A DNA stretch of 34,024 nucleotides, taken from positions 1-34,024 of the forward strand of contig JAHQWJ010000065.1 of assembly GCA_029856125.1 (NCBI GenBank), written 5' to 3'. Origin of the DNA: Promethearchaeia archaeon (GTDB taxonomy: Archaea; Asgardarchaeota; Lokiarchaeia; Sigyniarchaeales; SOKP01). The position numbers and the translations under genes are program-made. Below, in pieces: positions 9,376-21,493 of the stretch (position 1 is its first letter; each line of letters starts with the position of its first letter). The notes under the pieces are model-generated. The model did not search any database, was not told the origin of the DNA, and was given only the letters and a program-made list of their open reading frames with translations.

Positions 9376-10449
9376 TTAATAATCATTTGCTTTTAATTTG
9401 GATCCCAATTCATTCCATTCTTTAGCTTTTTCAAAATTCCCTAGTTTTTCATGACAAAATACAGCGGATTCCCAAAAATCTAATTCAGATGGATCCAGAG
9501 CGACGATCTGATTAAATATGTTTATTGCTTCTTTATAATTTTTTCTCACATCGCAATAAATTCGGCCTAATTTCTTAAGCGCGTTGATATTCTCAGGATC
9601 GATTCTAATAGTGTTTTGATAATACATAATTGCATTATCAAAATCATTTAAAGCACTACAGCTAAACGCTAAATTTTCATAAAGTATAGGGTCGTCAGAC
9701 TGCAAACTTAGTGCTTCTTCATAGCACTTGATAGAATTTTCAAATTTTTCAGTAAAAGTGTAGGATAACCCCAAATTATTCCATGCTTCAATGAATTGAG
9801 GGTTAAGCTCAGTTGCTTTTTTATAACAGTTTATTGCTAATTCATAATCGTTTTGTTCATATGCAACATCACCTAAATCAAACCATAATTCAGCATTGTT
9901 GGGATTTATATCAATAGCTTTCTTATAAAACTTTATTGCTTCATCGAAGTTCTGGATATCGTAATAGATGATAGCTAGATTGATGTATAACATCTGCTCA
10001 TCTGGGTTGATTTTTATCGCTTTTTTGTAGCAATTTATTGCCTTGTCATATTGATCGTTTTCTCTATAAATTAAAGCAATGTTATTCCACACATCTGTAT
10101 AGCTTGGTTCATATTCTAGTGCGATCTTGTAAAATTTTAAGGCATTATCGTAATCTTCTAAATCCTCATATGCAAATCCCATGTTATAGTAAGAAATTGC
10201 GTCGTCAGGTTCGATTTTAAGCGCTTCTTGATAGCATTCTATAGCTTCTCCGAACTGATTTATCATACTGAACGTTAGACCTAAATTATTCCATACTTCC
10301 GAGAAAAAAGGATTAAGTTCAATTGATTTCTTATATGCTTTTATTGCCTCATCAAAAATTTTTTCGTCGTAATAGGCATCCCCGAGGTTAATCCACGCGT
10401 CAGCGTCTTTCGGGTCTAAATCAACTGATTTTTTGTATCGTTCAATCAT
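9376..10449 (-). CDS. Tetratricopeptide repeat protein (about 10 TPRs)
   Basis: 34-aa periodic W-x-N-L-G...A-I-x-x-Y-x-K-A-x-x-I-N-P units along the whole length. Confidence 0.95.
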   Translation of the reverse strand: MIERYKKSVDLDPKDADAWINLGDAYYDEKIFDEAIKAYKKSIELNPFFSEVWNNLGLTFSMINQFGEAIECYQEALKIEPDDAISYYNMGFAYEDLEDYDNALKFYKIALEYEPSYTDVWNNIALIYRENDQYDKAINCYKKAIKINPDEQMLYINLAIIYYDIQNFDEAIKFYKKAIDINPNNAELWFDLGDVAYEQNDYELAINCYKKATELNPQFIEAWNNLGLSYTFTEKFENSIKCYEEALSLQSDDPILYENLAFSCSALNDFDNAIMYYQNTIRIDPENINALKKLGRIYCDVRKNYKEAINIFNQIVALDPSELDFWESAVFCHEKLGNFEKAKEWNELGSKLKANDY

Positions 10450-10552: not shown

Positions 10553-11590
10553 CTATATTACGCAAAAAATATCTTGAGTTTGATCTGTAAGTAAAATTCT
10601 TAAATGTTTTTCGCTTCCTTTGAAAATTACTTCTTCTAGTTTTCCTTTAGCTAACACGATTTCTCCATCCTTAGCGTGTTCACAAAATCTACCGCGAAAT
10701 GAGTTGATTTCAGTAATGTCTTTTAAGTTTATTCTATTTAGTATGAAGTTTTTATCCACGATTTCTATACCTTTAATTTTATAAGAGCAGGGAGTAAAAA
10801 TGGAATCGGTTGAATCTACAATCTTTGCTTTTATTTCAATCCTTCCTAAATTCTTGAATTTGTAATCGTAAAAATTTCCTTTCCAATCCTCCGGGCTTTT
10901 GATGTACCGAATAAAAAAATCGGTTCCATTGAATTTTCCTTGATGCAGCTTTCTTTTTTCACTTTTAAGAAAATTCTCAAAGCTAAAGCTAGATCCTCCA
11001 AATCTCCAATCGTAGTGAGTTCTATATTCTTGCATATTATATTTCCTTAAACTCTTTGATACGCCGAAGGTTTTTTTTAAATTATCTTGAAATTCTAAAC
11101 TTTCGCGAGTACCGTATATTAAAATATCTAAATCAGACTTCTCTTTATTTAGTCCGACCATGGGTGACCCAGATATTCCTATTGAGTTTTCAGGCACTAA
11201 ACATTTCTTGTTAAACAATTCACACAATTGTACTAAAGCCAATTCGCAATCTTCTAATTGGTTCTTCATTGTGAGGGCATCGTAATAATCCCTTGGGGTG
11301 TATATTTTTTTAATATCTCCGATTTTAACGCCTTGAAGTTCTAAATCAAGCTGGTTCGAAAAAAATAGATATTGTGGGTATTCCTCCCTCACTTTCAAAT
11401 ATCGTTCATCCAGGGAATAGACTTTTTTATATCTTTTTCCTTCCTTTATTCTTTCCCCATTTTGATCTGGATAAAATCTTAAAAAACAAATTTTTCGGTC
11501 TTGAGGGTGGTGATAACCTTTTATATCGAAAAATAGGTGGTTTTCTTTTGTTTCAAGGTAATCCCCTTCAATTCCTTTTGGAATCTTCAT
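10553..11590 (-). CDS. Archaeal predicted nucleotidyltransferase (Pol-beta superfamily, COG1665-like)
   Basis: GISGS-x10-SDLDILIYG motif, N-terminal F-x-x-KG-x-x-HP...FLR-x-YP, C-terminal FTPCSY...SFRGRFCE...GKLE. Confidence 0.8.
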   Translation of the reverse strand: MKIPKGIEGDYLETKENHLFFDIKGYHHPQDRKICFLRFYPDQNGERIKEGKRYKKVYSLDERYLKVREEYPQYLFFSNQLDLELQGVKIGDIKKIYTPRDYYDALTMKNQLEDCELALVQLCELFNKKCLVPENSIGISGSPMVGLNKEKSDLDILIYGTRESLEFQDNLKKTFGVSKSLRKYNMQEYRTHYDWRFGGSSFSFENFLKSEKRKLHQGKFNGTDFFIRYIKSPEDWKGNFYDYKFKNLGRIEIKAKIVDSTDSIFTPCSYKIKGIEIVDKNFILNRINLKDITEINSFRGRFCEHAKDGEIVLAKGKLEEVIFKGSEKHLRILLTDQTQDIFCVI

Positions 11591-11610
11591 AATTCCCCCA
11601 ACTTTACTGG

Positions 11611-12714
11611 CTAATATCTCGAAGGCGTTTTTGATTTGATTTTATATTTTGGTATTTCTTTTGTCTTTTTTAATTCTTTTTCAAAATCTCTTTTTTCTTT
11701 AAGAAATCTCTCTTTATCACTATCTAATCTTTGCCTCTCCTTTCTAATTGAAAATTTTGCATCCTCTATTTTCAATTTTTCCTTTTCCAATTTTTTTATT
11801 TCATCTTTTAAACTTTTCAATTTATTTTCTAAATTGCGAATTTTGTGTTCTAGTGAAAAATAAGTATTTTCAGCTTTAGGTACTTTCCTATCTAATTCTT
11901 TTAATCTTGTTTCTTGCCCTTTTTTCTTTCTTTCTAAATCTCTTACATCGTGATCTACATTCTCTTTAAATTTTCCCAATTTCTCTTTTTTTTTCTCAAT
12001 ATCACGAGCTTGAAGACCTAAATCCTTTTTCTTATAGCGAACCTTTTCTTTTTCATCTTTTAATCGCCTCTTCTCGTCAACAATTCGATTTTTTTCATCT
12101 ACTATCTCTCTTCTCAAACTATTGATTTCTTTGCTTAAATTATCTCTTTCTCTCGTTAAACTCTTAGATTCGTTTCTTAAATCCATTAAATTGTTTTCCA
12201 ACTTTTCAATTGTTCTCTCTAACGCACTCTCTCTCCGTTCCATTCCGGGCAACTTGGTTTTAATTTCTTTAATTCTTTCTGTTGCTTTTTCTTTTTCTCT
12301 TTTTATGTATTTCTTCTCACTTTCTAATTCGTCTCTTAATCCTTCTAATCTCTCTTGATATCGCTCTAGGTCAGCATTTTTCTGATCTAACTCCCTTTCT
12401 TTTTCATAGAGATTATTTTTACTTTCTTTTATTTCGTTTCTCATATTGTCTAATTTGTCTTTTAATTGTTCGTGTTGGTTTTGAAGGCCCCTTACTTGAA
12501 GTTCTTTTTCTTTTCTTTTTTTTTCTAAATCTTGAATGTTATCTTGATAGCCATCAATTTTATTGATAATTCGCTCCCATTCAGTTTTTTCTCTATTTAA
12601 TTTAATTCTTTCTTCCTTAATTTTTTTGAGTAATTTCGCATTAGGGATGGTATCTAGTTGCTCTTCTGGCGTTTTTTCTCGAATTTGATACTTTGGAATA
12701 GGCTTATCTTTCAT
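11611..12714 (-). CDS. Long coiled-coil protein (367 aa)
   Basis: Almost continuous K/E/R-rich heptad pattern; a near-identical IPKY-x-I-x-x-KTP motif at both termini. Confidence 0.85.
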   Translation of the reverse strand: MKDKPIPKYQIREKTPEEQLDTIPNAKLLKKIKEERIKLNREKTEWERIINKIDGYQDNIQDLEKKRKEKELQVRGLQNQHEQLKDKLDNMRNEIKESKNNLYEKERELDQKNADLERYQERLEGLRDELESEKKYIKREKEKATERIKEIKTKLPGMERRESALERTIEKLENNLMDLRNESKSLTRERDNLSKEINSLRREIVDEKNRIVDEKRRLKDEKEKVRYKKKDLGLQARDIEKKKEKLGKFKENVDHDVRDLERKKKGQETRLKELDRKVPKAENTYFSLEHKIRNLENKLKSLKDEIKKLEKEKLKIEDAKFSIRKERQRLDSDKERFLKEKRDFEKELKKTKEIPKYKIKSKTPSRY

Positions 12715-12893
12715 GGCGGTTCTTAACCTTACGTAAATTATTAATAATATTATATTGACTCAAATTCTAAAGTGTTTGTAATTTCAATTTGAGAAATTCT
12801 TTTGTTTTGTGAAGTCTATTTATATAACATAAATTTCATTATTTTTTAAAAGAAATATAAAATTAAGTAATCTCTATTTATGGTGTTAATCTA

Positions 12894-13280
12894 ATGGATG
12901 AAGATGGGTTTGACGAAGAATTTGATGAGGATTTTGATGAAAACTTGGAGGAAGATTATGACGAGCGCTCTACAAAGCACCCTACGAAAGATTTTAGAGC
13001 CAAGACCCCAGAACACAAAACCTCTTCTGAAGGAAAAAAGATCTCAGTTTTTTTTCTATCCACTATAGGCCCAGGGGAGAAAAAACAAAAATTGCTTGTA
13101 TTCACAGGGAATAAAGTTGGAGACATCAAAGAAACTGTAGCAAATTTATTTGCTTTAGACCCATCTGATTTTTACCTTAGTTCTGGAGGTGTAACTATGG
13201 ATGAGAATAACCAGTTAAATGATTACGATGTAGTTGACGGAGATGACATTTTATTAATTCCAGCTAGCATTGCTGGTTGA
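12894..13280 (+). CDS. Ubiquitin-fold modifier, paralogue A (acidic N-terminal tail, ends in a free Gly: IPASIAG)
   Basis: Beta-grasp pattern ISVFF...KLLV...VGDIKETVANLF.LDP.DFYL..GG..MDEN.QLNDY.V.DGDDILLI; about 70% identical by hand count (56/81) to the core of 17280..17609. Confidence 0.85.
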   Translation: MDEDGFDEEFDEDFDENLEEDYDERSTKHPTKDFRAKTPEHKTSSEGKKISVFFLSTIGPGEKKQKLLVFTGNKVGDIKETVANLFALDPSDFYLSSGGVTMDENNQLNDYDVVDGDDILLIPASIAG

Positions 13281-14391: not shown

Positions 14392-15397
14392 AATGAACTT
14401 TGATCAAGCCATTGAAAGCGCGCTCGCACAAGCTATGGAAGAGGATGATAATATTATTATTATGGGAGAAGATGTGCACACTATACGATTAAATCTTTTT
14501 GCCCGATTCGGTAAGGAAAGAGTGAAATACACGCCTATAAGCGAGAGTGGATTTGTTGGTGCTGCAGTTACCGCTGCTATGGCTGGTTTACGACCTATTG
14601 CGGAAGTTATGCTTGCTGATTTTCTTGCTGTTACAATGGACGCTATTCTCAATCATGCAGCGAAAATTGCATTCTTTTCGGGTGATAAATGGAATGTTCC
14701 TCTCGTTATCAGAACCGCGTGTGGTGGTGGGTATGGCGATGCTGGACAGCACGAACAGAGTTTATGGGGTTGGTTAGCTCACATACCAGGATTATCAATT
14801 GTTGTTCCATCAAATCCTGCAGATGCAGGTGGATTAATGCTCTCTTCTATCTACGAAGATAATCCTGTAATTTATTTCGAACATAAATTATTATCTGATT
14901 TTTGGATGGAAAATATGGCTATAGGAGGGAGAACCACTGTTTCTTTTGAAGTGCCAGAACAAGGAGCAGAAGGAGAGGTACCAGATAAATGGAATCCAAT
15001 TCCTTTAGGATTACTCAATCGCATGAAAGAAGGAAACGATATTACGTTAGTGAGTCTTGGAGTGAGCGTACATCGATGCATGGAAGCTGCTAAAATCTTA
15101 GAAAGGAAAGGAATATCTGCCGAAGTCTTGGATTTAAGAACTGTAATACCACTGGATTTAGAAAATATAAAAAAATCCGTTGAAAAAACTGGAGTTTTAA
15201 TAGTTGTTGATGAAGATTATATGCAATTCGGACTTTCTGGTGAAATTTCGGCTCTGCTTTTAGAAGAGTGTTTATCTTTTAAATATGGTCGTGTTTGTAC
15301 CGAAAATACCATACCTTATTCTATAGATTTAGAATTGCAAGCACTCCCAAATACAGAGAGAATCGTGAATAAGGCTCTTAAAATTTTAAATAAGTAG
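14384..15397 (+). CDS. 2-oxoacid/acetoin dehydrogenase E1 beta subunit
   Basis: MGEDV, TPISESGFVG, GLRPIAE, QHEQS, PSNPADA, NPVIYFEHK, EVLDLRT..PLD; overlaps the alpha gene by 8 nt. Confidence 0.92.
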   Translation: MTKMNFDQAIESALAQAMEEDDNIIIMGEDVHTIRLNLFARFGKERVKYTPISESGFVGAAVTAAMAGLRPIAEVMLADFLAVTMDAILNHAAKIAFFSGDKWNVPLVIRTACGGGYGDAGQHEQSLWGWLAHIPGLSIVVPSNPADAGGLMLSSIYEDNPVIYFEHKLLSDFWMENMAIGGRTTVSFEVPEQGAEGEVPDKWNPIPLGLLNRMKEGNDITLVSLGVSVHRCMEAAKILERKGISAEVLDLRTVIPLDLENIKKSVEKTGVLIVVDEDYMQFGLSGEISALLLEECLSFKYGRVCTENTIPYSIDLELQALPNTERIVNKALKILNK

Positions 15398-15466: not shown

Positions 15467-16255
15467 TTATTTTTTTCTCGATGGAATCAAAGCAATTTCG
15501 TCATCATCATCAATAAAATAGTCCTTTATTTGCTTAGTTTCATCTAATATTATACCACCTGTGGAAAGGAGAAAATCTTCTAAACCATAATCAAATAGAA
15601 TTCCTACTTGTTCCTTGATTATATCTATGAATTCGGAGGTTTCAATAATGATGATTTTAGTTCTCTCCCCCGGTTCGACTAACGATCTTACATAAACCCG
15701 AACTTTATCATCCATTCCAATTGTGGTTAATGGAGGGTGGTATGTTATCTGTTCATCAGTTAAATCTTTATTTTTCCAAATATCATCAATAAGTTGCTTT
15801 CTCTCATCAGCATCAAAATACAACATCTCTCTGATAAAAAAGATTTTATCCATTTTTGAAAACCCTAACAAATCGATTTTATCTAATACTTCCTGAGTGA
15901 AAAATGTAAAAATATAATCATCGATTGACTCTATGTTTTCAAAGGATTCATCAGTATCAGCGTATTGATCTATTAATGGCATAGCTTCGATGTAATCCTC
16001 AACCAGATCGCGTGATATCCTTTTGACAGATTTTGGGTTTTGATAATATTTTTCTTTTTTTATCCTCTTTCCTGGGCTGCTTTTAGATTGAACAACGGTA
16101 TAAATCGTGCCTGTAGATAATACAGCAACGCTTCCAATAGTTAGAAAAAGAAATAAAGGTAAACTCTCTATTTGTAATAGGAAGAAAATCAAATAGATTA
16201 AAGCGAAAACAACATAAAGAGTAATAATATTTAAAACTCTGTATTTTTTCTTCAT
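15467..16255 (-). CDS. Membrane protein with two N-terminal TM helices and a C-terminal ubiquitin-fold domain (paralogue B, no terminal Gly)
   Basis: Two hydrophobic segments in the first 55 aa. The C-terminal VRVYVRSLVEPGERTK...DIIKEQVGILF....DFLLSTGGIILDETKQIKDY..DDDDEIALIPSRKK aligns by eye with the two soluble UBLs. Confidence 0.8.
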   Translation of the reverse strand: MKKKYRVLNIITLYVVFALIYLIFFLLQIESLPLFLFLTIGSVAVLSTGTIYTVVQSKSSPGKRIKKEKYYQNPKSVKRISRDLVEDYIEAMPLIDQYADTDESFENIESIDDYIFTFFTQEVLDKIDLLGFSKMDKIFFIREMLYFDADERKQLIDDIWKNKDLTDEQITYHPPLTTIGMDDKVRVYVRSLVEPGERTKIIIIETSEFIDIIKEQVGILFDYGLEDFLLSTGGIILDETKQIKDYFIDDDDEIALIPSRKK

Positions 16256-16340: not shown

Positions 16341-17018
16341 TTACCCATCAATAATTGACTTCCTAATATTTTCATATTTCTCTAGGTCTAATCGATATAG
16401 AACTCTTTTTTTATTTTTTTCAATTTTTATTATTTTGAGATTTCTTAATATTTCAAGATATTTCTTTACAGTATTGTAATTTCTTTTTAAATTTGCAGCT
16501 ATTTCCGTGATTTTAAAGGCATTATGTTCTTTTTTCAGAAGGTTGATAATATCTCGTACGATATCTTGTTTTAAATAGTAATACCACTCATCTAGATCGG
16601 AATTAGATTCGTATTCAAAAATCATTCTTTGATTATCGATTTTTTTTGATCGTGTAAATCTAAATTTTTCTAAACAGGATAAATGCCAAAGAGCTTGGTT
16701 GCTTCCAATATTGATTGCTTTCATTATATCATTAATGTTCGATGGATTTTTTCTTACATAATTATAGATTTCATTTCTTATTGGATGCTCAATGATGTTA
16801 TTTTTCATTAATTTAGTTCCAGGGATAAGAATTCTTTTTTTTATGAGATTTTTAATAATGAGTTCAATGCTGTTCCTATTTAAATTAGGATTCGATCTCA
16901 CTCTATTAGCGATGAACACGACAATATCTTCTATCGAAAAGAAAGGTTTCTTTTTTAGATATTCCTTTATCAGATTACAAACAATAGATTGAAGGTTATC
17001 CGGAGTGTTCATAAGCAA
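16341..17018 (-). CDS. Winged-helix transcriptional regulator with tandem ArsR-like HTH domains
   Basis: RNEIYNYVRKNP...INDIMKAINIGSNQALWHL..LEK and IINLL...ITEIAANLKRNYNTVKKYLEIL..LKII, plus an additional N-terminal helical/wH-like region. Confidence 0.82.
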   Translation of the reverse strand: MLMNTPDNLQSIVCNLIKEYLKKKPFFSIEDIVVFIANRVRSNPNLNRNSIELIIKNLIKKRILIPGTKLMKNNIIEHPIRNEIYNYVRKNPSNINDIMKAINIGSNQALWHLSCLEKFRFTRSKKIDNQRMIFEYESNSDLDEWYYYLKQDIVRDIINLLKKEHNAFKITEIAANLKRNYNTVKKYLEILRNLKIIKIEKNKKRVLYRLDLEKYENIRKSIIDG

Positions 17019-17265
17019 TTTATTTTAAAGGGTTGAATTATTTGATTTCTATAATCAAATCTTCGCTCTAAAACGATATTTTCCAAATTATATATATTGA
17101 TAGACATTCATTTAATTTATAAATATAAGATATTAGGTTTTTTAATGCAAATACTTACATTTTAACCAAAATTCAAAAAACTTCAAAATCATACCAATGG
17201 GTTATTTAATGTAAGTACATCATCAAATTATTAAGTTTTAAAAAAAAACTTAAATTAAAAAAATA

Positions 17266-17274
17266 AAGGAGTGA
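17266..17274 (+). promoter_or_regulatory. Ribosome-binding site of the UBL operon leader gene
   Basis: AAGGAGTGA ending 5 nt before ATG 17280. Confidence 0.6.
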
Positions 17275-17279
17275 TTTGA

Positions 17280-17609
17280 ATGAGTTTTGAAGAAGATTTT
17301 GATGAGGAATTAGAGCCAGTTAACTCTAAAACCCCATCAAGCAAAGTACCCTCAACAGGCAAGAAATTGACATTATATTTCATGTCAACTATTGGTCCTG
17401 GTGAAAAGAAGGAAAAATTGACTGTAAACGACGCTAATGAAGTAAGTGATATCAAACAAACGCTAGGAAATCTATTTGGACTTGATCCAGACGATTTTCA
17501 TATTTCATCCGGAGGAGTAACAATGGATGAGAATAGCCAGTTAAAAGACTATAGTGTTAATAATGGCGACGACATTCTTTTAATCCCAGCGAGTACAGCT
17601 GGTAAATAA
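17280..17609 (+). CDS. Ubiquitin-fold modifier, paralogue C (pro-form, ends IPASTAG-K)
   Basis: Beta-grasp pattern with ubiquitin-like QLKDY; first gene of the E1-E2-JAMM-RING operon; single penultimate Gly, no di-Gly. Confidence 0.88.
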   Translation: MSFEEDFDEELEPVNSKTPSSKVPSTGKKLTLYFMSTIGPGEKKEKLTVNDANEVSDIKQTLGNLFGLDPDDFHISSGGVTMDENSQLKDYSVNNGDDILLIPASTAGK

Positions 17610-17703
17610 AAGCTGGATACTTTTAAATAATTCTTTTCATAAAATATAATATATAATAAGGGCACTAAGCCCTTCAATTTTTTTATTTTTTTGATTAATA
17701 TTA

Positions 17704-18939
17704 ATGGTGATAATAATGGGTAAAGATTCAGATTTTTTTGCAAAAGGAATGTCAGAGGAAGAGAGAGACTTATACGATCGCCAATTTCGTTTAGAAGGAT
17801 GGTCCCAAAAATTAGTTAAGAATTCAAGAGTGTTAATAGCGGGTGTAGGGGGTTTGGGATGTGAAATTGCTAAAAATTTGGCTATGTTAGGTGTAGGTCA
17901 TATAGATCTTGTTGATATTGATATAATTGAACATTCTAATCTGAACCGTCAAATTCTCTTTGCTGGAGCAAAGTTAGGAGAACCTAAAGCATTTATTGCT
18001 GCTAGAAAATTGACTGAAATTAACCCCAATATTATTGTTAAAGGGTATCATACATCCTTAGAAAGATTAAATCCAGCACTCTATCACGCTTCAGATGTTG
18101 TAATTGGAGGTCTTGATTCGATGAATGCAAGGTTGAACTTAAACGCTCAATGCATTAGATTTAAAAAACCTTTGGTAGATGGGGGGGTTTCTGGTTATTA
18201 TGGTCACATATATACGATATTTCCATATCAAAATGCATGTTATGAATGTAATCCATTACCAGACATCAAGAATGATGATATGGCAGCTTGTACAGTAGTT
18301 GGAATCCCTCGAAAAAGAATTCATTGTGTTTTTAAAGGAGATATGGCCTTTAAAGAGAAATTTGACAAAGATCCGAATCCTAAAAATATCGAGGATATCA
18401 AATTTATTCAAAAAGTTGCAAATGAATACGTAGTAAAACACAATTTCTTACCTGAATATACTGAAGATGATGTCGTAAAAATTATTGATCGCCACGATCC
18501 AGGGATCATTACGATTAACGCAACTATTTCAGCATTACAATCTCACGAAGTGGTTAAAATCCTTCATTGGGAAAAAGGTCACAAGGGTTTAGGTGAGCCC
18601 ATCAAAAATTACATTATATTTAATGCAGTGACTATGAAATTACACCACATTGAAAAGAAGAGAAATCCAGAATGTTCTCAATGTGGTAAAAGTGCAAGAC
18701 GAGTTTCCATTAAAATGAGAGATATTTCACCTTGCGTAAATATAATTAAAACACTAGAAAGAAATGGATTTGAATTGGATTCTGAATTTGAACCGATAAT
18801 AACTCTATTGGATTTTAATGATATTATTGTTTTAGATTTAGAGCAAAATCCAACTCAAAACGGTTTAAGGAATTACGAATTTCTAACTGTTGCGGGGTTT
18901 AAAGGTGGAGAAATTTACGTAACCTTAAAAATTAAATAA
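17704..18939 (+). CDS. Ubiquitin-like activating enzyme E1 (ThiF/MoeB adenylation domain + UBA2/UBA3-type catalytic Cys domain + putative C-terminal ubiquitin-fold domain)
   Basis: YDRQFRL, GVGGLGCEIAKNL, D-x-D-x-IEHSNLNRQ-x-LF, LDS-x-x-AR, Zn ligands CYEC and CSQC, catalytic segment ACTVVGIPR-x-x-IHC. Confidence 0.93.
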   Translation: MVIIMGKDSDFFAKGMSEEERDLYDRQFRLEGWSQKLVKNSRVLIAGVGGLGCEIAKNLAMLGVGHIDLVDIDIIEHSNLNRQILFAGAKLGEPKAFIAARKLTEINPNIIVKGYHTSLERLNPALYHASDVVIGGLDSMNARLNLNAQCIRFKKPLVDGGVSGYYGHIYTIFPYQNACYECNPLPDIKNDDMAACTVVGIPRKRIHCVFKGDMAFKEKFDKDPNPKNIEDIKFIQKVANEYVVKHNFLPEYTEDDVVKIIDRHDPGIITINATISALQSHEVVKILHWEKGHKGLGEPIKNYIIFNAVTMKLHHIEKKRNPECSQCGKSARRVSIKMRDISPCVNIIKTLERNGFELDSEFEPIITLLDFNDIIVLDLEQNPTQNGLRNYEFLTVAGFKGGEIYVTLKIK

Positions 18940-18996
18940 AAATTTAATCAAAAATATAATTTTAAAATATAATAATAAAAAAACGGGGTTAAGAAT

Positions 18997-19524
18997 ATGA
19001 GTATAAGAAGTAGTCGAGTTTCCCGAGATTTTGCGGGACTAAAAAAGTTGCTAAAGCAGGGTACTATTATTCAATTGAAGCCATTTAATCCAAAAAAGAA
19101 GAGCATCGATCACTTAGCTTTATTGATTAAAGGTCCTAAAGGTACTGCCTATGCTGGGGGATTGTTTAAATTAGAAATGAAGTTTCCAGTTCAATATCCT
19201 AAACAACCTCCTTTTGTCCGATTGCATACTCCTATATGGCATCCAAATTTTTGGCCAAAACCAAGTGAGTATAAAGGACAAAGAAATATTTGCTTAGCTT
19301 TAGTAGATCCATCTCTAGTTGGAAAAAAAGGGGGATGGAGTCCTTCAAAAACAGCAGTTACAGTCGTTCAATCAATTATTGCTATGTTAAACACTCATGG
19401 AAAATATGTTAATCCAACTGATGTGTTTAATAAAAAAGCAGCTATAGAAATGATGAAAAATCCGAAATTTTTTGATAAAAAAGTAAAAACTTTAGTAAAG
19501 AAGTATGCCAAGGATAAATGGTGA
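18997..19524 (+). CDS. Ubiquitin-conjugating enzyme E2 (UBC fold)
   Basis: GP-x-GT-x-Y-x-GGLF-x-L...FP..YP..PP...TPIWHPN...ICL...WSP...VVQSIIAML. Confidence 0.95.
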   Translation: MSIRSSRVSRDFAGLKKLLKQGTIIQLKPFNPKKKSIDHLALLIKGPKGTAYAGGLFKLEMKFPVQYPKQPPFVRLHTPIWHPNFWPKPSEYKGQRNICLALVDPSLVGKKGGWSPSKTAVTVVQSIIAMLNTHGKYVNPTDVFNKKAAIEMMKNPKFFDKKVKTLVKKYAKDKW

Positions 19525-19531
19525 ACCTAGA

Positions 19532-20335
19532 ATGAATTTCGATGAAAAGAATAGCGATTCTATCAGAGATGCTATAAAACAAAGAATTAAAGAGAAAATT
19601 AAAAAAGAATTACTTGAAGAAGTATACACAGAATTACAATTAGAAGAATTACAAGAAGAATTAACAACAGAAATTATCAAGGCGAAACCTATAGTTCATT
19701 CAAAAGAATTCAAAGCAAAACTTGAACCCATCCCGATGGAACCAGTAAAAACTACAGCTAGCAATGACAGAACTAAAGCTAAAATAGCTATCACTTCAAC
19801 AGCAATTCTTAAAATCGCGAGTCATTCATTAAAATATGCTAATTCTAAAATACATAGAGATGATTGGGTGGAAGTAATAGGTTTACTAGCAGGGAACTTT
19901 GATAGTTCTAAAGGAATCCTAAATCTGGAAGATGCTTATCCAATGGGACATGGAACAGCGGTCTATGCTGAAATAAAGGATTATAAGAATTATGTTAGAG
20001 CTTACAGAGATATTAAAAAAAAGGGACTGTTTATATGTGGTTGGTATCATTCTCATCCTTCTTATGGATGCTTCATGTCAAGAGAAGATTTAGGAACTCA
20101 AGCAAGATATCAAAAATTGTGGAATAAAGCTGTAGCACTCGTCATCGATCCATATCAAATTAACGGGAAATCGTTTGGTTTTGAAATTTATCGTGCAAAT
20201 TTTAAGACCAGGAAATGGTTCTCAGTGCCTTTTGATATTAAGGGGCATTTAGATGTGATGATGTTACCCGAAATTTTAGAATTCATGAACCCAATAATTG
20301 ATGGCAAACCAGTATATTTAGAATATGATGAATAA
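19532..20335 (+). CDS. JAMM/MPN+ metallo-isopeptidase (Rpn11/CSN5-like) with an N-terminal helical extension
   Basis: EVIGLLAG, GWYHSHP-x-YG-x-x-x-S-x-x-D-x-x-TQ, VALVIDP. ATG 19532 follows GGTGA (the track opens at 19505). Confidence 0.93.
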   Translation: MNFDEKNSDSIRDAIKQRIKEKIKKELLEEVYTELQLEELQEELTTEIIKAKPIVHSKEFKAKLEPIPMEPVKTTASNDRTKAKIAITSTAILKIASHSLKYANSKIHRDDWVEVIGLLAGNFDSSKGILNLEDAYPMGHGTAVYAEIKDYKNYVRAYRDIKKKGLFICGWYHSHPSYGCFMSREDLGTQARYQKLWNKAVALVIDPYQINGKSFGFEIYRANFKTRKWFSVPFDIKGHLDVMMLPEILEFMNPIIDGKPVYLEYDE

Positions 20336-20368
20336 AAAGATAAAAAACATCTTAGGTGATATCAAACC

Positions 20369-21493
20369 ATGGCAAGAAATAAAACTACACCAATAATATT
20401 TACTATTTTTCTAATAATTGGTGCAATCCATGGGTTACTCTCCTATTCTTTTTCTAATTTTGCGACTTGGTTATTAATTGGGTTATGGTTAATTTTTACA
20501 TTAAAGATATTTGGAAACATAAAACGTCACCGTGAGTTTAATTCACCGCATAATACTGCATTTTTTGTCATCGTTCCATTAGGTATTGGAATTTTTTATT
20601 CTATATGGGGATTTTATACTGGCATTTTAGGAGAAAACCTTCTTGGAGGAGTATATTTTAGTTTATGGAGCCTAATTTTTGCCTTTCCTTACGTATTATT
20701 TGGTTCTTACTCTTTATATCGTTGTTTTAAGAAATACAATGTAATATATTTTGGAACAAAAGCAGTAAAAGCTAGAGCGTTGGGATATATCCTATCATTT
20801 TCAGTTCTAATTTTTATTTTAGCCTATTGGATAAGTTTCTATAGTGGTATTGAGAGTATTCCATTGGATCTTAATCTCTTACTGCTATTAATAGCTACGA
20901 TTTTAATAGTTATAATTTTTGGGTTTACTAATACACGCTCATCATTACCAGCAATAACTCGTGATTACATTGCAAACCGTACTAGAACGATTAATAATTT
21001 AACCACACCTACAACACAGAGACAACGTGTACGGACAACGAGGGTAACTAACCCAACTCCATCTACTAGAACAACTACGCGCACAACAAGATCAAGAACT
21101 CAATCATCAAGGGCAACACCCACATCTCGTAAGCAAACTAATAGATCTAAAACATCAAATGTAACTCGTACCACTAGAGTCAAACCGACTCCAAAAATTC
21201 GAGATATTAATAAGTTTAAACCAAGAGCATCATATTTATCATTAGAGGATTTTAAGTGCATCTTTTGTTTTAAATTACCAAAACTTCCTGAAGATAGAGG
21301 ACGAGGAGTAGTTGTGTGTCCGAATTGTAGGTATCCTTCTCACGCTGACGAATTTAAAGATTGGATGCGAACTTCAAACCTTTGTTCACGCTGTAGTGCA
21401 TCTATTCCATCTAGTTTTAGGCGTAATCCAAGAGTAATAAGCATAAAAAATTATGTGATAATCTATAAACAATTTTTAAAGAAAAAAGCGTAG
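20369..21493 (+). CDS. Polytopic membrane protein with a C-terminal RING-like zinc finger (putative membrane E3 ligase)
   Basis: About six hydrophobic helices, a Thr/Arg/Ser-rich linker, then C-x2-C-x16-C-x2-C-x4-H-x2-E-x3-W-x6-C-x2-C; last gene of the E1/E2/JAMM operon. Confidence 0.8.
   Translation: MARNKTTPIIFTIFLIIGAIHGLLSYSFSNFATWLLIGLWLIFTLKIFGNIKRHREFNSPHNTAFFVIVPLGIGIFYSIWGFYTGILGENLLGGVYFSLWSLIFAFPYVLFGSYSLYRCFKKYNVIYFGTKAVKARALGYILSFSVLIFILAYWISFYSGIESIPLDLNLLLLLIATILIVIIFGFTNTRSSLPAITRDYIANRTRTINNLTTPTTQRQRVRTTRVTNPTPSTRTTTRTTRSRTQSSRATPTSRKQTNRSKTSNVTRTTRVKPTPKIRDINKFKPRASYLSLEDFKCIFCFKLPKLPEDRGRGVVVCPNCRYPSHADEFKDWMRTSNLCSRCSASIPSSFRRNPRVISIKNYVIIYKQFLKKKA

Follow-up and report, generated by a model that had tools for sequence, protein, structure and literature searches.

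Did ubiquitin-type tagging at the membrane exist before eukaryotes? Membrane-bound RING ligases of eukaryotes drive endoplasmic reticulum (ER)-associated degradation, organelle quality control and receptor sorting. We know of no archaeal counterpart of these ligases that has been characterised. The question is raised here by a five-gene operon (positions 17280-21493) of a Promethearchaeia archaeon, a member of the Asgard archaea; the window that we analysed is the whole 34,024-nucleotide stretch of DNA, contig JAHQWJ010000065.1. The operon encodes a ubiquitin-family modifier, an E1, an E2, a JAMM protease and a polytopic RING-like membrane protein, which is fixed as the last gene of such an operon in many Asgard lineages. 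We consider it likely that the operon is a self-contained ubiquitin-family conjugation system typical of Asgard archaea, probably acting at the membrane through the RING-like ligase. Ubiquitin-type tagging at the membrane would then probably predate eukaryotes, which we pose as a testable question, approachable with five small recombinant proteins. The system bears on the origin of membrane-associated ubiquitylation.

The host genome has 3.69 Mb and 31% G+C, and the close protein relatives that carry names come from Lokiarchaeota or Promethearchaeota metagenome bins. C-numbers below denote contigs of this genome (G000), the window being C65; L-numbers denote loci in other genomes and f-numbers GTDB families, f1 being the window's own. 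All five open reading frames lie on the + strand and are separated by 94, 57, -20 (an overlap) and 33 nucleotides (nt), in agreement with the original prediction, made from the DNA letters, of five co-directional genes with gaps under 100 nt. They encode the modifier UBL_C (17280..17609, 109 residues), the E1 activating enzyme (17704..18939, 411 residues), a UBC-fold E2 (18997..19524, 175 residues), an Rpn11-like JAMM/MPN+ metalloprotease (19505..20335, 276 residues) and the six-transmembrane (six-TM) protein (20369..21493, 374 residues), the candidate E3. Scanning against Pfam gave ThiF for the E1 (194.7 bits), UQ_con for the E2 (89.5 bits), JAB for the protease (52.5 bits) and a borderline match of UBL_C to PF00240 (25.0 bits); the six-TM protein gave weak zinc-finger matches, with no family above its cut-off. 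Together with a check of the motif residues and an AlphaFold model, the scan bears out the predicted complete set of modifier, E1, E2, JAMM and RING-like protein with intact motifs.

UBL_C consists of an acidic N-terminal tail, an SKTP/SKVP motif, a beta-grasp core and a C-terminal LLIPASTAG followed by one Lys. The family profile matched single ubiquitin chains in the PDB at 1e-4 to 2e-8, the Asgard 'putative ubiquitin' entries 8hm1-3 at ~1e-6, and also ISG15 and FAT10. Chains of UFM1, SUMO and NEDD8 do not occur in the list of its 60 best matches in the PDB. In Pfam, Rad60-SLD reached E 0.024 at best, and the named atlas neighbours of the modifier are ubiquitin-family (PF00240) clusters. The profile aligns with ubiquitin residues 11-70 and leaves six tail positions, the same number as in ubiquitin; Ala107 is therefore the counterpart of Gly75 and Gly108 that of Gly76. 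The end of the protein, IPASTAG-K-stop, has a single Gly, as predicted, and C-terminal Gly-Gly is absent from the modifier, the tail S-T-A-G placing Ala where ubiquitin has Gly75. By its sequence the modifier is a ubiquitin relative with a tail of ubiquitin length that ends in Ala-Gly. Across 16 orthologues from distant families Lys-17, Thr-18, Pro-19, Leu-100, Leu-101, Ile-102, Pro-103, Ser-105, Ala-107 and Gly-108 are invariant, and Thr-106 nearly so. In the mature tag the last Lys stands 20 residues ahead of the C-terminal Gly end. The acidic, disordered tail has seven Asp/Glu and no Lys/Arg in 15 residues. K-T-P is invariant within it though the rest of the tail is variable, and usually one or two copies of [ST]K[TVI]P stand directly ahead of the first strand.

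The E1 combines a single ThiF adenylation domain with a ubiquitin-fold-like domain at its C-terminus. It carries GxGGxG at 47, CxxC at 179 and 324 (a zinc site) and a catalytic-type Cys196 in AACTVVGIPRKRIHC, and these motifs are kept in 13 orthologues. It has a single adenylation domain and therefore probably works as a homodimer. The best PDB matches were UBA2 (9e-37), Uba1 (7e-36) and UBA3 (1e-34; 300 residues, 35-334). A special resemblance to SUMO and NEDD8 E1s had been proposed; the scores of the three are alike and do not uphold it, and by sequence the E1 is of a generic canonical type, equally near to Uba1, UBA2 and UBA3. The E2 has HPN82 and a sole cysteine, Cys99, both invariant across orthologues, with inserted loops between HPN and the cysteine and past the cysteine. 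Its PDB matches are headed by the loop-bearing Ubc15, UBE2R and UBE2T (1e-16 to 1e-13), Ubc9 and UBE2F ranking lower, and sequence comparison assigns it no specific orthology to any E2 family. The protease has a helical N-terminal extension followed by the JAMM residues E123, H182-x-H184, S192 and D195, a motif invariant across orthologues; its nearest relatives in the PDB are the Caldiarchaeum Rpn11-like protein 6fjv (3e-16) and yeast Rpn11 (4e-16). The protease had been expected to trim the terminal Lys of the modifier. One of the two modifier paralogues in the window, UBL_C, does need trimming. As a core step trimming is not supported, since in about two thirds of the orthologues compared the Gly is the very last residue, the others carrying one to six extra residues; trimming is thus an accessory job and deconjugation the likelier main role.

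The modifier tail, IP-x4-G with a single Gly, recalls UFM1, a resemblance that is treated as a lead only. Eukaryotic UFMylation acts at a membrane, and an archaeal UFM1-type system, forerunner of UFMylation at the ER membrane, might be considered for the present locus. Structure-based homologues of Ufm1 have been reported from nine Asgard clades in a survey of 2026, with disordered termini and as parts of larger proteins, which would fit this modifier family (PMC12962969); the text of the survey is without accessions, and its Ufm1 family may or may not be that of the window. The gene set argues otherwise, however. Pfam Ufm1 (PF03671) matched neither the modifier nor anything else in the genome at E<=1, and 400 Asgard genomes gave no match to it at E<=0.001; the genome was also without a match to UFC1 (PF08694). 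The E2 bears HPN, the protease is a JAMM and not a UFSP, and the E1 matches UBA5 at 6e-14 against 9e-37 for UBA2. The modifier profile finds ubiquitin, 8hm1-3 and ISG15, its neighbours in the atlas are ubiquitin-family clusters, and UFM1 is missing from its 60 listed PDB chains. We regard a UFM1-type system as very improbable, and the relation to UFM1, SUMO and NEDD8 ancestry that had been put forward is not supported. A sulfur-carrier reading was considered as well and, with no test aimed at it, rejected on the presence of the E2, JAMM and RING-like proteins, the absence of a rhodanese domain and the occurrence of SAMP/MoaD-like genes and a MoeB-type E1 elsewhere in the genome.

What, then, would place such a system at a membrane? 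We obtained a full-length AlphaFold model of the last protein from an input of 45 diverse homologues (pLDDT 85). Six helices span residues 2-25, 28-56, 64-80, 99-121, 135-160 and 168-187, followed by a juxtamembrane helix, a disordered stretch (217-275, pLDDT <50) and a folded domain from about residue 285. The polytopic E3 candidate of the original prediction is thereby recovered in the model, with six TM helices and a RING-like C-terminal domain. Lys/Arg are clustered in four places, namely the N-terminus, residues 46-63, residues 120-134 and the segment that follows helix 6; the remaining loops have none. Under the positive-inside rule this distribution puts both termini and the zinc domain in the cytoplasm; a six-TM topology with a cytoplasmic RING-like domain is accordingly predicted. 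The membrane domain (residues 1-190) had no specific match in Foldseek against pdb or in the wide VIA comparison, the hits being generic helical ones with Z <8. Between it and the zinc domain runs a disordered basic linker rich in Ser, Thr, Pro and Arg (21017..21220), with 20 Lys/Arg against one Asp/Glu in 68 residues; over 45 orthologues the means are 17.8 and 3.4. That the linker is electrostatically opposite to the acidic tail of the modifier is suggestive only.

The zinc domain (residues 285-374; 21221..21490) has the pattern C297-x2-C300-x16-C317-P-x-C320-x4-H325-x2-E328-x3-W332-x6-C339-x-R-C342, of which Cys-297, Cys-300, Cys-317, Cys-320, His-325, Glu-328, Trp-332, Cys-339 and Cys-342 are invariant in the 45 diverse homologues. 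It retains two RING-H2 hallmarks, a hydrophobic residue (Ile298) after the first Cys and Trp332. Its spacing equals the CxxC...CxxC-x4-H-x2-C...W...CxxC of the other RING variants of the genome, with Glu replacing the sixth ligand. When 21 member domains were compared with Pfam, RING families predominated: Prok-RING_1 was matched by 21/21 (best 6.5e-5) and zf-RING_16 by 17/21 (best 4.4e-5), and zf-RING_2 was matched at 7e-4. Foldseek with the domain model (pLDDT 84) reached E 7.5e-3 at best (probability 1.0), and nearly all of its top matches are RING or U-box domains, including TRIM32, RNF4, Ring1b, RNF8, HRD1 and CHIP. With VIA the domain reached Z 7.6 to 3lrq (root-mean-square deviation 4.4, 75 aligned) and 7.0 to Ring1b. 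RING/U-box is the sole defined fold family that the C-terminal domain matched. We read it, on its sequence and model, as a RING-superfamily domain; ligase activity of the six-TM protein is plausible.

Several points weigh against a membrane-bound ubiquitin-family cascade with this protein as its ligase. The domain has seven Cys/His ligands, the sixth position being Glu328, or Ala in one orthologue (L040). The window's own zinc domain lies under the gathering score of every Pfam family, and the Prok-RING_1 scores of all the domains compared fall below the gathering cut-off of that family, 29.1 bits. The Foldseek E-values (at best that given above) and the VIA Z scores (<8) are modest for a small domain. 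By sequence, the zinc profile found its best PDB match in the C-terminal zinc domain of IFT144/WDR19, in four entries at 3.4e-4 to 0.04, with identical CPxCx[FY]P[AS] core and spacing; the match could be a link to protocoatomer RING-like domains or a chance match of Cys-rich sequences. Chains of IFT-A and GATOR2 are also among the fold matches. The PF00240 score of the modifier falls just short of the cut-off of 25.4 bits, the modifier might have a UFM1-like fold, and the idea that the KTP lysine is an acceptor is a hypothesis drawn from co-occurrence alone.

RING-like domains of the IFT144/WDR19 group are better known as assembly modules than as ligases. The cascade might be real and the six-TM protein a non-catalytic docking or assembly module, or a receptor in the membrane to which the modifier, the E2 or some partner is recruited. 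The E2 would then modify its targets directly, an ability that Ubc9 has at a consensus motif. A Glu as sixth ligand, where Cys or His is expected, and the IFT144/WDR19, IFT-A and GATOR2 matches would agree with this, and the lysine motif [ST]K[TVI]P could be read by the E2 itself. The gene is, however, fixed as the last member of the operon in every family examined, classical RING and U-box domains of E3s fill the fold lists, and the RING-H2 hallmarks are retained. The small RING protein of Caldiarchaeum, moreover, stimulates its own E2 (PMC5654768). We consider a non-ligase role unlikely and prefer to see the six-TM protein as a RING-like ligase.

Is the set of five genes a unit? The six-TM protein was matched in 237/400 Asgard genomes and in 118/134 genomes of the window's own family. 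Its family has 115 cluster representatives in 1.84 billion proteins, and the named homologues are all called hypothetical. The gene-neighbourhood check that the original prediction had proposed was carried out on 17 loci from other genomes (families f1, f3, f4, f5, f7, f13, f15, f16, f17, f28 and f29). Wherever the contig permitted, the genes for modifier, E1, E2, JAMM and TM-RING protein occur together. All five are grouped in f1, f3, f4, f7, f13, f15, f16, f17, f28 and f29, while the flanking genes differ; short contigs of f5 and f15 captured JAMM-TMRING alone. Altogether the module was met in no fewer than 12 GTDB families of the Asgard phylum. In f13 the genes run in another order, E2-JAMM-TMRING ... 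UBL-E1, in which the TM-RING gene has kept its adjacency. A second modifier paralogue is present in many loci. The arrangement is far beyond chance, and because the module is kept while its flanks change it is strong evidence for functional linkage of the five genes. Three features are conserved jointly across classes, namely the ending in Ala-Gly, the acidic KTP-bearing tail and the TM-RING protein, and the E2 is strongly conserved across classes. Within its own family the locus has a fixed place among housekeeping genes, including riboflavin/F420 genes.

This distribution bears on the suggestion that the operon serves antiviral defence, as a module of the Bil or CBASS-Cap2/Cap3 kind. Bacterial defence operons of Ubl, E1, E2 and JAB genes do exist (PMC10557695), and in the PADLOC comparison the E1 adenylation domain matched the E1-E2 (Cap2) models at ~1e-15 and the JAMM the JAB models weakly. 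PADLOC has, on the other hand, no match for the modifier, the E2 or the TM-RING protein, and no effector gene is present at the locus. Occurrence in most genomes of its family in a fixed housekeeping-gene context amounts to a core-genome position, and the E2 is well conserved across classes. We attach hardly any credence to a defence role.

Does the operon stand apart from the general ubiquitin system of its host? A second E1 (527 residues, 11496-13094) and a second E2 (14830-15342, - strand) lie on C128; the region (C128:6300-15342) also holds a 1641-residue repetitive helical protein and is not one operon, with no modifier gene near. On C56 (9316-9570, + strand) a ubiquitin-like open reading frame ends QAGG and has the best PF00240 score of the genome (38.6 bits). 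The frame is without an ATG (ATG starts only were examined) and adjoins a 449-residue helix-turn-helix-like protein. Five more JAB proteins are encoded in the genome. Near a ThiF-like gene on C152 there is neither an E2 nor a Ubl gene. A further Ala-Gly modifier (C145:1752-2081, + strand), with STAG-IL at its end, matches UBL_C at 2e-58 and has no partner genes on its 14 kb contig; either a true third paralogue or a strain duplicate may be at hand (the bin has 6% contamination). Some ten further proteins, on C9, C19, C36, C42, C53, C84, C135 and C140, carry the RING variant CxxC...CxxC-x3-5-H-x2-[CHED]...CxxC, among them a small RING protein of 109 residues (C140:36135-36461). For an archaeon, such a set of E3 candidates is sizeable.

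These proteins might share the operon's E2, and the operon might simply be the catalogued general ubiquitin region of Lokiarchaea, its membrane protein being one of many E3s and adjacent by chance. A discrete Lokiarchaeota Ub region with Ub, E1, E2 and deubiquitinase has indeed been published (PMC9192718), and the modifier is closest to ubiquitin. Against this stand the second E1/E2 pair and the better-scoring Gly-Gly ubiquitin elsewhere in the genome, the joint conservation of Ala-Gly tail, acidic KTP tail and TM-RING across classes, and the survival of TM-RING adjacency in the f13 rearrangement. We find the general-system explanation distinctly unlikely. Since there are a second E1/E2 pair and a Gly-Gly ubiquitin, the operon is probably a separate pathway, as had been proposed, with cross-talk between the two being possible. 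It seems, from the Ala-Gly tail and the second E1/E2 pair, that the ubiquitin-like pathways of Asgard archaea had already split into several orthogonal ones.

What might a separate pathway of this kind modify? The KTP motif that the modifiers share with a neighbouring protein is a first lead to a candidate substrate. Upstream of the operon lies the paralogous modifier UBL_A (12894..13280, + strand, 128 residues; phmmer 1e-37 to UBL_C), which L003 and L004 have at the corresponding position. Its acidic tail, with the KTP motif, is longer, and it ends IPASIAG-stop; ending at Gly, it is made mature. Divergent from UBL_A is the gene for a 367-residue coiled-coil protein (11611..12714, - strand), to which Pfam gave generic coiled-coil matches only. 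Both of its termini carry IPKYxIxxKTP, with IPKYQIREKTP at the start and IPKYKIKSKTP at the end (KTP at residues 14-16 and 362-364). The codons of SKTP in UBL_C are at 17325-17336, and those of the KTP lysines of the coiled-coil protein at 12673-12675 and 11629-11631 (- strand). Homologues of the coiled-coil protein are encoded divergently beside a modifier gene at six more distant loci (L040, L041, L042, L043, L045 and L046). The ends were read for L040, L041, L043 and L046 and have one to three I-x-[ST]-KTP repeats. In f15 and f16 small proteins with KTP or KIP ends flank the operon. The plain KTP tripeptide is not enriched genome-wide (413 seen vs 356 expected), so that the extended motif and its placement alone are notable: [IVLM]x[STE]KTP occurs 24 times in the whole six-frame genome, 4/24 being in the modifiers and the coiled-coil protein. 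We hypothesise from these sequences that the motif either offers its Lys as acceptor or serves as a docking site for the E2 or E3, and regard the coiled-coil protein as a candidate substrate or partner.

Related domains are found in several neighbouring proteins. Modifier domains form the C-terminus of larger operon-adjacent proteins, a HerA-like ATPase (L042:14075-15829, - strand) that ends SRAG and a vWA protein (L045:2189-3961, + strand) that ends STAG plus six residues. As these fused domains keep the terminal Gly, whole proteins might be conjugated through their own C-terminus. A small soluble RING variant with Cys at ligand six is encoded directly upstream of the coiled-coil gene beside the operon at L046 (4139-4369, + strand), in another genome of the same family. 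In the window, a membrane-anchored protein with a C-terminal UBL that ends IPSRKK (15467..16255, - strand) matched the UBLs with phmmer at 5e-13 and PF00240 at E 0.028. It has no terminal Gly, hence its UBL cannot be conjugated; the pathway might use it as a decoy or as a receptor. It has two TM helices and an N-terminus that is weakly SLATT-like (PADLOC 5.5e-5; NCBIfam SLATT_5 E 0.33), and it was seen in L003 and L004 alone, the two f1 loci compared.

A protein with two winged-helix domains of ArsR/SdpR-like type (16341..17018, - strand; HTH_5, HrcA_DNA-bdg; HTH_metalloreg 7e-11) is encoded divergently from the operon, in a position kept in L003 and L004, and is a candidate regulator. The 261 nt between this gene and the modifier gene (17019..17279) are AT-rich, as read from the DNA, and are the presumed promoter region; GGAGTGA lies 5 nt upstream of the modifier ATG. 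A T-rich tract 3' of the modifier gene and a T8 tract 3' of the last operon gene would be compatible with a single transcription unit plus an extra modifier transcript. Proteins with TPR repeats are found near the operon in the window (9376-10449, - strand) and at L046:10190-10957, L050:5638-7677 and L052:9034-10329; TPR matches being promiscuous, their link to the operon is uncertain.

Taking these observations together, we infer the following scheme for each chemical step, for the E3 activity, for where the system acts and for what it targets. The Ala-Gly modifier would be supplied as one paralogue that is mature as made and another with one extra Lys. The single-chain canonical-type E1 would adenylate the C-terminal Gly of the modifier, which would pass to Cys196 of the E1 and then to Cys99 of the HPN-type E2. 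The charged E2 would be received by the RING-like domain of the six-helix membrane protein, held on its long basic cytoplasmic tether. Because this domain is predicted to face the cytoplasm on such a tether, conjugation to lysine would take place at the cytoplasmic face of the cell membrane. The Rpn11-like JAMM would mainly strip the tag and would trim short extensions where these are present. Targets or partners would be carriers of [ST]-K-[TVI]-P, namely the modifier's own tail, giving chains, and the ends of the coiled-coil protein.

A bolder joint reading can be built on this scheme. The operon would be a second, ancient ubiquitin-family pathway of the membrane beside Gly-Gly ubiquitin, in which a polytopic RING protein writes an Ala-Gly tag on [ST]K[TVI]P lysines. 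Modifier chains and coiled-coil ends would together form a reversible protein scaffold close to the membrane, and among prokaryotic domains the zinc domain would stand nearest to the C-terminal RING-like domains of protocoatomer proteins such as IFT144. As a whole we hold this reading to be doubtful. If true, it would tie the origins of membrane-coat architecture and of membrane-bound ubiquitylation to one Asgard system.

How does the operon compare with systems already described? The operon of Caldiarchaeum subterraneum comprises pro-Ub, an E1-like and an E2-like protein, a small RING finger protein and an Rpn11-like JAMM (PMC3082918, PMC5654768, PMC6043591), and its cascade has been reconstituted in vitro (PMC5654768, PMC6043591). 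The same five functions are clustered in the window, with a single-chain E1 bearing a catalytic Cys, an HPN/Cys E2 and a ubiquitin-family modifier, and the Caldiarchaeum JAMM is the nearest solved relative of that of the window. The two operons differ in the tag, which in the window is Ala-Gly, belongs to a family mostly made mature and has an acidic N-terminal KTP tail. They differ also in the RING protein, small and soluble in Caldiarchaeum, whereas that of the window forms the end of a six-TM protein and has Glu at ligand 6. The window operon is of Asgard-wide distribution.

Within the same phylum, an E1/E2/RING cascade of Helarchaeia that acts on UEV-Vps23 has been reconstituted (bioRxiv 10.1101/2023.07.25.550441). 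Helarchaeia and Lokiarchaeota systems share their enzyme families with the window operon. Both reconstituted cascades, of Caldiarchaeum and of Helarchaeia, use Gly-Gly pro-ubiquitin and soluble RING proteins. The Helarchaeial RING is soluble and has an N-loop, and its system adjoins ESCRT genes, whereas the window operon has the Ala-Gly modifier, a membrane RING and no ESCRT neighbour. The Lokiarchaeota 'Ub region' was catalogued by InterPro markers, which would not see the RING protein of the window, and may well be this very cluster (PMC9192718). The novelty claimed for the operon is thus reduced in so far as a Lokiarchaeota Ub region was already published. It would still apply to the membrane RING and the Ala-Gly tail; in the literature on Asgard archaea we found no description of these or of the KTP motif, older key papers lying outside the search.

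Among eukaryotic ligases, Hrd1, Doa10/MARCH6 and the RNF family share the plan of a multi-pass membrane domain followed by a cytoplasmic RING-H2-like domain, with a soluble E2 as partner. For the membrane domain of the window protein Foldseek and VIA gave no similarity to any solved structure, and its locus has no Derlin, Cdc48 adaptor or retrotranslocation partner. Of the C-terminal zinc domains of protocoatomer-type proteins (IFT144/WDR19, GATOR2/SEA subunits), that of IFT144/WDR19, the best sequence match, has an identical CPxCx[FY]P[AS] core and, from there to the last CxxC, an identical spacing of 22 residues. Those of IFT144 and GATOR2, however, end beta-propeller/solenoid proteins, are without operon context and, in IFT144, have no His, and the E-value of the match is marginal for a Cys-rich domain. 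Prok-RING families were defined by the Ubl, E1, E2 and JAB genes that lie next to them, and several of these families are associated with membranes. In contrast to Prok-RING_1 (PF14446), the six-TM domain and the basic linker are specific to the Asgard family of the window.

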